Part shown: piece by piece, positions 28,301-31,300 of the stretch
How the letters are laid out: each line of letters opens with the position of its first letter
Numbering within the stretch: the stretch's first letter is position 1
Assembly: GCF_029227855.1 (NCBI RefSeq)
Contig: NZ_CP074356.1
Source of the DNA: Escherichia coli
Lineage (GTDB): Bacteria; Pseudomonadota; Gammaproteobacteria; Enterobacterales; Enterobacteriaceae
DNA length: 64,000 bases
Reading direction: 5' to 3' (one strand)
Position numbers: made by a program

Positions 28301-31300
28301 ATCATGTATAAGCAATAAAAAACAGCTTCAGGTAATGAGGAATATCTCAATTTTTAAACATAAAATGCGAATTATTTAGTACAAAAAGTGTACTTCTGAT
28401 GATCTTTCCCTGTCCTTGGCACCATCATTTTTTGACGCTTCAAAAATACTACTACAAGTGAGTTTAGAAAACTCTTTTCCAGATAATTCTCCAGGTTGTA
28501 ATCCTCCGCCGCCAAAAATCCTACTCCCAGGATTTCCATACCTATTTAGAGCATATGAATAGCAATTATTTACGGCAAGATAATACGCATCTGAATTTAG
28601 TTCTCGATTGAATACTGGAGCAGGTTTATCAATTAAGCCCAGCGGATCAATAGAATAGGTTGGATGTATGGAAGCATATACATACTGATTCCACCCGCCT
28701 TCCAGCCCAATCGGATCCTGAGTGATATACCGCCCCTGCAGCGGGTCATAATAGCGGTGGCGGTTGTAATACAGGCCGGACTCCTCATCATACTGCTGCC
28801 CCGGCAGACGGATAAGCTGCTGCAGGTGCTGCGGGTTCTCTTCAGTCAGCAGGTTGTCCCATTCATCATATTCTGCGCACCATTCTGTTGCCCCGTCAGG
28901 GCTGATAAGCGTCAGCGGCAGGCCGCGATAGTCGCAGTGGTAGAGGTGGATTATTCGCAGTGATCTATATGCCAACGTCATCTTATTTTTCATCTACTCC
29001 AACGAGTAGACAAGTTTTTTATTAAACCATTTATACCTTTTACGATTAAATTTTCTTATGTAATAGAGGTGAATAATCTTCCCAAAAATCCATACAAGCT
29101 TTACTTGCATAAAAGAATCCAGCGTCTGATTCATAAGACATAAACTGTGCAATAATAGATAGTTGTATATCTGAAAAATTAAAAACAAAATTCAAAAAAT
29201 CATCGTGATCCCGATACTCAGGACATAAATATTGTTGAATAAAATCGGATTCAAAAACCCAAAAATCATTCTTATTAAACAACGAGGCATAAATATACAG
29301 AGGGATGTAATAGCAGAATACTTTCTCAGGGAGGAATGTAATTCCTAACTCTAAAGCATAAGAGTCATCCTTTATTTTAAAATTGTTGGCTATTTCATTC
29401 CATTGTTTCTTTTGGAAAAAATTATATACAATATCCAGTTCCTCCAGCCCTGTAATATCATTTGAAATATGAGGTAATGGCTGGCATGGGAAATGAATCA
29501 TAAGTTCATCATAGACTGCACTCTCGTTAGAGAAAATTATTTTTTTCATTTTATTAAGCCACTGCAATCAGCTGCTGTTTTATATGCTTTATTCTCTTCT
29601 TCCATATGGGCCTTATCTCCACCACCAAAGCACTGATTATTAATCTGCTTTCTGACCGAAGCGCACGCCAAATTTATCTCGTACCGTCTCAATATTTCTT
29701 TTCTCAGCATCTGAGGAGCGCAAGCTCTAGACTGGTTACATAATCTGTTTTTTTCATTTTGTAAGTCACTCAGGTTCTGGGGACTACAGTTACCACCAGG
29801 ATTTACACCTGACTTATGTTCATCTGTTAATTTGTCGGCTTCTGGATTAACTTTACGGCCATATTGATCTCTGCGTTGTTGCCCACTTTGGATAACACCA
29901 CCTGATGAAAACAAACCGCAACTCATCAGTGCTACAACACTAAGAATTAACGGATTTAACCCTTGTGGGTCTATCTCTGAGATCGGATTTAACGGATACT
30001 GATAAAAATTCCATCCCCCCTTCAGTCCAATCGGATCCTGAGTGATATACCGCCCCTTCAGCGGGTCATAATAGCGGTGGCGGTTGTAATACAGGCCGGA
30101 CTCCTCATCATACTGCTGACCCGGCAGGCGGATGAGCTGCTGCAGCTGATGCGGGTTCTCTTCATTCAGCTGGTTACCCCATTCATCGTATTCTGCGTAC
30201 CACGCTGTTGTCCCTTCCGTGCTGACAAGCGCCAGCGGCAGGCCGCGATGGTCGCAGTGGTACAGGTGGATTTTTCGCGCCGGCGTGTACACCGGGTCCA
30301 TCTGGTTTTGCATCTGCTCCACCGTCAGGCCGCACGATGCCAGCCAGCGGCGGCTTTCCTCGCTCACCCGGTCAGTAAGGATTTCACTTTCCAGCCGGTC
30401 GAGCATCTGCACCAGCACCGGCGGGAACACCACTCTGCCACCGTCTTCGCCGCCGGACTGCTGAAGGGCATCCGCCAGGCTGCGGCGCTGCGTTTTCGCC
30501 AGCTCACCGGTGGCGGTTTCAACTCTGATGAGTGGCGTGAAGCTCCCCGGCTGATAAACCGTCTGGATGCGGGTTCTGTCGTTCTGTATTGTGGTCAGCC
30601 GGTCGCCGTCCCAGCCGTACCAGGTCACTTCCGGTTTCCGTGACAGCGACATCCAGCCCGTCAGGTCCCGTTCACGCCGCCATACCCGTTTTGCCACCCT
30701 GCGGCCCAGCGGGTCGTAAAGATAGCGACTTTCGACCAGCGGCTCTGCATATTGTGTCCGCGTGTAGTGCACCAGCCGGTGCCGGCTGTCGTAATGATAC
30801 CGGTGAGTCCGCTCATCATCCGTGCGGATAACCCCTTCCGGGATGAGGTCGGTTTTCTCTGTCAGCCTGCCGTGACGGTCATACCGGTAAAGATAGTGCG
30901 CGTCACGGGCGATACGGTTATCCGGCCACATGCTGAGGGTGCTGTCCGGGTGCAGCTCCGGGTCGGGCAGGCGGTTGCCTGCCGGGTCCGTGGCATACGG
31001 GATGCGGATATCCAGGTTCGCTGCCGTGGTGTGGACGCCGGTCAGCCTGCCGGTGTCGCTGTAGCTGTAACTCCGGGTCTGGCGCGGGCTGCTGATGCGG
31101 ATGAGTTCGCCGTTGTCGTTCCAGGTGTAATCGCGGTCATACTGCAGGCTGTTCAGGTGCTGGCTCTGTAACTGCCCGGCAGGGGTGTAAGCGGTGGTGA
31201 GTTCATAACGGCCGAAGCTGCGCAGCGTTTCCCGGTGCAGGCGGTCGCGGGTGAAATCCACCAGCGGTGTGTCGCCGAGTTTCATGCCTGACAGCCAGCC

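Follow-up and report, generated by a model that had tools for sequence, protein, structure and literature searches.

In Salmonella LT2, the genes rhs-main (STM0291) and rhs-CT-orphan (STM0292) share a tract of 522 bp at 95% identity, through which recombination can join the orphan tail to the core that delivers it. A deletion of this kind makes cells sensitive to their siblings, and recombinants were found only after the locus had been duplicated, with the main immunity gene kept (PMC3967940). For E. coli, Jackson 2009 proposed that the core recombines with a dissociated tip to release a circle, which then integrates elsewhere (PMC2935791). Orphan cdiA-CT/cdiI modules of contact-dependent growth inhibition (CDI) systems work once they have been grafted to the main gene (Poole et al. 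2011, PMC3150448). Here we analyzed a stretch of 64,000 nt from E. coli (assembly GCF_029227855.1, contig NZ_CP074356.1), referred to in full as the window, in which a full-length rhs gene (the main rhs) is followed by an orphan rhs fragment and the 3′ end of the rhs core is present in both as a direct repeat. A reading made from the sequence alone had proposed that a RecA-mediated deletion between the two copies would fuse the orphan tail to the full-length Rhs and so change the toxin available to the cell. We found that the repeat is a genuine core-end repeat with a past crossover to its account, as shown by comparison of natural alleles, and that the orphan has very probably been inactivated since. 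We put the probability of this explanation as a whole at roughly 0.85. The orphan module is a fossil of a swap system, not a usable reserve.

The locus is of a known kind (Jackson 2009; Koskiniemi 2014) in a decayed state, and both core homology between main gene and orphan and the swapping of tips have already been published for rhs loci. As in Salmonella LT2, a full-length rhs gene, composed of a conserved core and a variable tail, comes first, then a small gene, which in the window is a candidate immunity gene, and then an orphan that carries the 3′ end of the core in direct orientation and in frame with its homologue in the main gene. The LT2 tract of 522 bp at 95% identity, with an intact orphan and its immunity gene, is represented in the window by only 271 bp at 89.7% identity, an orphan truncated by an insertion sequence (IS) and no immunity gene for it. 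The locus also has the features of a dissociated rhs tip as defined in E. coli: a partial core with a distinct tip lies downstream of an intact rhs gene of the same clade, the tips and their partner genes are low in G+C, and other strains have this tip joined to a core. Two states of the locus are one homologous crossover apart, as the excision/integration model of Jackson 2009, with its proposed circular intermediate, would predict. That study reported attached and dissociated core regions within an E. coli locus as identical (PMC2935791), whereas those in the window are 10% diverged with a sharp mosaic boundary. CDI orphans are similar in being silent modules with a short conserved upstream stretch, located downstream of the main gene and often next to transposase remnants. 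However, they belong to the CdiA delivery family (VENN motif) and are intact pairs, which the module in the window is not. The site itself is the ybfA-rhs-ybgA site of E. coli, the rhsC position of K-12, where the gene order is rhsC-ybfB-rhsO/ybfO-ybfC-ybfQ/ybfL/ybfD H-repeats-ybgA. Window and K-12 share the plan of main rhs, partner, orphan and ISAs1/H-repeat pseudogenes between ybfA and ybgA, but they differ in the main tail, in the partner gene and in the orphan tail.

The repeat had been described by eye as a stretch of about 250 bp that is 85-90% identical and nearly identical over its first 100 bp. Pairwise alignment of the two segments concerned (30023-30271 and 28703-28951), which the sequence-only reading itself had suggested as a check, was free of gaps and showed 23 mismatches in 249 nt (90.8% identity), with three mismatches in the first 100 nt of the + strand. 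This confirmed the observation. A repeat finder extended the repeat to 271 nt, with the copies in register at a spacing of 1,320 bp, and a direct count gave 28 mismatches (89.7% identity). The repeat is far beyond chance, because the next-longest direct repeat returned by the same program for the surrounding 20 kb is only 45 nt at 78% identity. The copies share strand (minus) and reading frame (1320 = 3 × 440), and the longest perfect blocks between them are 60 and 31 nt. The mismatches are distributed unevenly, with 22 in the 5′ 160 nt and one in the next 92 nt. The repeat is the last conserved stretch, that is the 3′ end, of the rhs core, present once in the main gene and once in the dissociated orphan tip. 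It stops about 20 codons short of the PxxxxDPxGL motif belonging to each tail. The core has a G+C of 0.62, and values for the tails, partner gene and spacer are 0.30-0.41. Upstream of the orphan copy, weak and degenerate core homology continues for about 45 nt more (28959-29005).

Comparative searches were carried out on 5,426 complete E. coli genomes, and three natural states of the site were distinguished. In state S0 (40 genomes), a full-length Rhs carries the intact orphan-type tail and is followed by a gene for a 124-aa partner, with no orphan and no IS. NA3664 and ST2747 have this arrangement at the same site, with a 1,391-aa Rhs ending in the intact orphan-type tail, the 124-aa open reading frame (ORF) and then ybgA. 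State S1, present in a single genome (GF43, NZ_CP172127), consists of a main Rhs with an Ntox16 tail, a 167-aa partner, the intact orphan and the 124-aa partner, again with no IS. State S2 is that of the window, with a truncated orphan and an IS, and its whole 3.1-kb arrangement occurs in 242 genomes, E. coli 7/2 (NZ_CP023820) being one example. Six core ends were aligned. At all informative sites (at least 15) through column 227, the S0 alleles of NA3664 and ST2747 have the state of the main copy, and from column 288 they have that of the orphan. The switch of haplotype thus lies inside the 60-nt block that is identical in main and orphan. When GF43 was compared with ST2747 by BLAST, the single ST2747 repeat aligned to both GF43 copies. 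Because of the position of the switch and this double match, S0 and S1 are, judged by sequence, separated by one repeat-bounded unit of 1,320 bp, i.e. by one reciprocal crossover in the repeat. The comparison of natural alleles at this level shows the repeat to be a real recombination substrate that has been used in nature at this site.

Within the repeat, some 15 changes private to the orphan fall in the 5′ 160 nt, while the next ~400 nt of the orphan differ from S0 only at column 248, where an A is private to both S0 alleles. Column 248 and the parallels between haplotypes fit excision as well as integration, each being the exact reverse of the other. Comparison of the main core with those of NA3664, GF43 and ST2747 gave no clean breakpoint for a left crossover; the cores are mosaic throughout, and these genomes include no near-isogenic pair. 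Across 30008-33697 the mismatches to these three genomes range from about 1 to 20 per 300 nt with no single breakpoint, a patchwork that is consistent with frequent gene conversion among rhs paralogues. The block from the Ntox16 tail through the retained orphan tail (window 28413-30007, GF43 5681-7275) is 99.3-100% identical between the window and GF43, whereas the flanks, i.e. the adjoining core and the ybgA side, are 93.8-97.7% identical. This difference suggests either a recent transfer of the block between backgrounds or heavy recombination of the flanks. We lean, with no great confidence, towards the view that the 1,320-bp unit is a tip cassette mobilized by homologous recombination, which would have been inserted or excised by a single crossover in the 60-nt block and would have spread horizontally in recent times.

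According to the sequence-only reading, the deletion would change the toxin that the cell can deploy. This does not hold for the window, where the orphan is broken. Homology of the orphan tail to other genomes ends at 28413, and beyond this point lies an IS end that thousands of genomes contain. Collinearity between the window and GF43 extends from 34300 to 28413, where the window passes into the IS. On alignment with the NA3664 locus, window 28958→28413 corresponds to positions 6730→7275 and window 27416 onward to 8085 onward, so that where NA3664 has ~0.8 kb between 7275 and 8085, the window has ~1 kb of IS instead. The replaced segment holds the 124-aa gene in full, the final 73 residues of the toxin domain and ~230 bp of spacer. 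What the orphan retains is residues 1-74 of 147 (window 28413-28633; the intact form is NA3664 locus 7019-7498), including Cys24. Because the β-sheet half has been lost as a whole, and with it His104 and Arg107, the truncated domain is very probably inactive. Neither the distal half of the toxin nor the 124-aa partner gene (sought by tblastn) was found anywhere in the window, and the 124-aa gene that follows the intact tail in NA3664, ST2747 and GF43 is replaced by the IS. At the locus itself, none of the 242 window-type genomes has a partner or immunity gene for the orphan. A search with the intact tail/partner region gave no more than two matching places in any genome, with a median of one.

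The inserted element belongs to the ISAs1/H-repeat family by its terminal sequence and transposase homology. Its left end matches IS ends in more than 5,000 genomes, it is 94.9% identical to the ISAs1 copy of the K-12-type rhsC locus, and RefSeq labels it in near-identical genomes as ‘ISAs1 family transposase, internal stop’, a pseudogene. The copy itself is dead. Between the right end of the IS and the point where ybgA-side homology resumes, about 18 nt (27417-27434) are unaccounted for. The window-type arrangement has persisted and diversified, and no deletion derivative has arisen from it in that time: there are two sub-variants, and in about 170 of the 242 genomes a 23-bp stretch, CACTGCGAATAATCCACCTCTAC, is duplicated in tandem, which is single copy in the window. 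The duplication is located at the start of the orphan core fragment, just downstream of the ATG (L007 locus 3839-3870, corresponding to window ~28940-28962), and it throws the orphan out of frame. K-12-type rhsC loci are among 337 genomes that keep only the 3′ ~130 nt of the 124-aa gene and the spacer, directly after ISAs1 copies (K-12-type locus 9001-9359). Judged by this remnant next to ybgA, the tail/partner module would be a long-standing distal occupant of the site, and the pattern in the 337 genomes suggests an older, independent IS-associated loss of it. Of this module, the K-12 type has just the 3′ end of the 124-aa gene, and what the window has instead is the first (5′) half of the corresponding toxin.

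We propose that the two copies of the repeat represent the 3′ core end in an expressed full-length Rhs and at the head of a dissociated orphan tip, and that such core fragments would provide the homology through which Rhs tips are exchanged. A unit of 1,320 bp, made up of the Ntox16 tail, its partner gene, the spacer and the orphan leader, would have been gained or lost by one crossover in the 60-nt block. Later, insertion of the ISAs1/H-repeat element together with an adjacent deletion would have taken the C-terminal half of the orphan toxin and its partner gene with the apparent signal peptide. A deletion between main and orphan occurring now would yield an in-frame Rhs with a probably inactive tail, devoid of the Ntox16 toxin and its partner gene.

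Recombination between the two copies is mechanically possible, because they are direct and in frame and contain perfect blocks of 60 and 31 nt. According to Shen and Huang in 1986, RecA-dependent exchange in E. coli reportedly needs a minimal efficient processing segment of ~25 bp. A divergence of 10% reduces recombination frequencies, and mismatch repair reduces them further. As a substrate the repeat is poorer than the LT2 tract. The deletion envisaged by the sequence-only reading would be in frame and would remove 1,320 bp with the Ntox16 tail and the 167-aa partner gene, leaving a 1,333-aa Rhs that ends in the truncated tail; we infer that in the window this would be a loss and not a toxin swap. 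No such product was seen in the complete genomes. The query used for this search combined main-specific core, chimeric repeat, truncated tail and IS end, so that only a true derivative would cover it fully. The best matches came from the 40 S0 genomes and ended exactly at the IS junction (84% coverage), and the next best, from S2 genomes, comprised the orphan side only (78% coverage). A fusion of core, truncated tail and IS was present in 0 of the 5,426 genomes, 242 of which carry the parental arrangement. Recombinant junctions between main and orphan, as known from LT2, are accordingly absent from these finished genomes. An argument for the same conclusion from equal counts of 242 was discarded in favor of this direct search, since the counts fail to add up when GF43 is included.

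Table 1. Features of the rhs locus in the window
Feature	Coordinates	Strand	Remarks
Main rhs, 1383 aa	29546..33697	-	DUF6531, RHS repeats, RHS core-end domain, Ntox16 tail
Main repeat copy	30008..30278	-	PF03527 through ...YYDPxxGRYxxQDPIGL
60-nt perfect block	30059..30118	-	identical to orphan 28739-28798; holds the crossover interval between natural states
Ntox16 tail of main Rhs	29549..30007	-	Pfam; low G+C (0.405)
167-aa ORF, candidate immunity gene for Ntox16 tail	29046..29549	-	G+C 0.30; by position
AT-rich spacer, 87 bp	28959..29045	-	last ~45 nt (28959-29005) a degenerate core relic; in-frame TAG just before orphan ATG
Orphan ORF, 205 aa	28376..28993	-	core end (PF03527), first 74 tail-domain residues, then 11 residues and stop encoded by IS sequence
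Orphan repeat copy	28688..28958	-	alignment and repeat finder
Retained orphan-specific tail	28413..28687	-	100% identical to intact tail of NA3664 and GF43 down to 28413
ISAs1-family (H-repeat) remnant	27417..28412	-	internal stop, ~304-nt internal deletion, both ends kept
ybgA	26850..27359	-	conserved chromosomal flank; fixes identity of the site

The genes of the locus follow each other on the minus strand in the order main rhs, 167-aa ORF, orphan, ISAs1 pseudogene, ybgA and phrB (Table 1). In Pfam searches, the N-terminal 400 aa of the main Rhs matched DUF6531 (E = 3e-18) and RHS_repeat, and its last 250 aa matched RHS PF03527 (E = 7.5e-16) and Ntox16 PF15523 (E = 3.3e-12), the latter match being complete (model positions 2-84 of 85). 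RefSeq labels the main gene in near-identical genomes ‘RHS element core protein’ and the orphan ‘RHS repeat-associated core domain-containing protein, incomplete, missing N-terminus’. The stop of the main rhs and the start of the 167-aa ORF overlap in an ATGA (29546-29549), which suggests translational coupling of the two. The 167-aa product is listed in RefSeq as WP_000720081.1, ‘hypothetical protein’, and matched no family in Pfam or NCBIfam; from its position it is a candidate immunity gene for the Ntox16 tail. Immediately upstream of the orphan ATG (window 28993-29010) we noted an inverted repeat with perfect 7-bp arms, which reads TCTACTC-GTTG-GAGTAGA on the minus strand, is followed by a T-run on the + strand and scores as terminator-like. 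It ends in the TAG codon, where the degenerate core homology starts.

The intact orphan-type tail belongs to a family of 825 representative proteins at E <= 1e-3. It had no match in Pfam or NCBIfam, and a sequence search of solved structures gave only chance-level hits (β-glucosidase, E = 0.017). In a trimmed alignment of 36 members, Asn23, Cys24, Ala28, Pro47, Cys80, His104, Arg107 and Cys140 are invariant, and the family is marked by the motifs NNCYxYA and DYHWYRQD...GxWSxKxG. The structural model of the intact 147-residue tail is confident, with a predicted local distance difference test score (pLDDT) of 92.5, and its structural neighbors, at low scores, are mostly papain-like, NlpC/P60, CHAP and Tae/Tse hydrolases. 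We regard the tail as a putative papain-like Cys/His domain, and the family appears to be a sizeable toxin family that has not been described. A protein cluster of 372 members (P0001) was considered as evidence of many intact orphans and rejected, as it is a contig-edge fragment and says nothing on the state of the locus. The 124-aa partner (WP_000494465.1) also had no match in Pfam or NCBIfam. It starts with what, by eye, resembles a Sec signal peptide, MFTKLSIAILLAFSAYVHA/ETSA. By position and by this feature it is presumed to be the immunity gene of the orphan-type tail, and the apparent signal peptide hints at a periplasmic target, perhaps the cell wall.

The explanation offered by the sequence-only reading, in which the orphan is a usable silent toxin cassette that a RecA-dependent deletion lets a subpopulation deploy, draws on a repeat that is in frame, on a perfect block of 60 nt that exceeds the ~25 bp reported as the minimum for efficient RecA-dependent exchange, and on the presence of the same tail on a full-length Rhs in 40 genomes. 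The mechanism itself has been demonstrated in Salmonella, so the precedent that was invoked is real (PMC3967940). However, the orphan tail in the window is cut in the middle of its domain and lacks the invariant His104 and Arg107, its partner or immunity gene is missing from the window and from the locus in all 242 window-type genomes, and no recombinant junction was found in the 5,426 genomes. Moreover, a simple deletion would also lose the main immunity gene, a loss that Salmonella avoided by prior duplication. For the window this explanation is largely refuted, and it is the least probable of those we considered.

We also see only a slim chance that the orphan is expressed alone from internal signals, as has been reported for Salmonella Rhs orphans that behave like toxin-antitoxin modules, with the repeat kept for these signals rather than for recombination. 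An ATG at 28993 preceded by GGAG would permit this, and promoters located within the core end, ahead of the Rhs toxins, have been reported for Salmonella and noted bioinformatically in E. coli (PMC7043789). Promoter-like sites in 28250-29700, however, are not in excess (2 found versus 5.4 expected from shuffles), and the product would lack half of the toxin domain and have no antitoxin partner. The frame-shifting duplication in about 170 genomes argues against selection on the orphan frame, and 17 of the 25 codons that differ between the repeat copies do so non-synonymously and 8 synonymously. Foremost among the alternatives, and still very unlikely, is that the copies are alike only through a conserved protein motif, with no history of recombination and with the orphan being the decayed 3′ end of a former gene. 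The repeat does encode the most conserved segment of Rhs (PF03527 to DPxGL), and core ends resembling it occur about five times per genome at 90-95% identity. Conservation of a motif would not account for 60 nt that are identical including third codon positions next to 160 nt with 22 differences (14% divergence), and uniform decay cannot yield an orphan with some 15 private changes followed by one difference in ~400 nt. The haplotype switch of the S0 alleles exactly within the identical block also speaks against it.

Some of our observations weigh against the explanation that we prefer, namely a core-end repeat with a past crossover and an orphan inactivated since. The immunity roles given to the two small ORFs, which match no family, come from their position and, for one of them, from a signal peptide judged by eye. 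The inactivity of the truncated tail is deduced from the loss of conserved residues and of half the fold. Finished genomes devoid of recombinants leave room for rare ones within populations. Finally, the cores are mosaic among strains, and gene conversion from other rhs paralogues could contribute to the pattern seen in the repeat.

The locus is of little import alone, and its pieces are already annotated in 242 RefSeq genomes. Scans that flag an orphan plus a repeat as a toxin reserve should also ask whether orphan tail and immunity gene are still complete, which in the window they are not. The site provides a natural series of three arrangements, with the tip attached, displaced but intact, or displaced and truncated by an IS, and with the crossover mapped to 60 nt. 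If this series of S0, S1 and S2 is true, it would constitute a natural before/after pair for the exchange of Rhs tips through a circular intermediate and could be used for tests of excision and integration.

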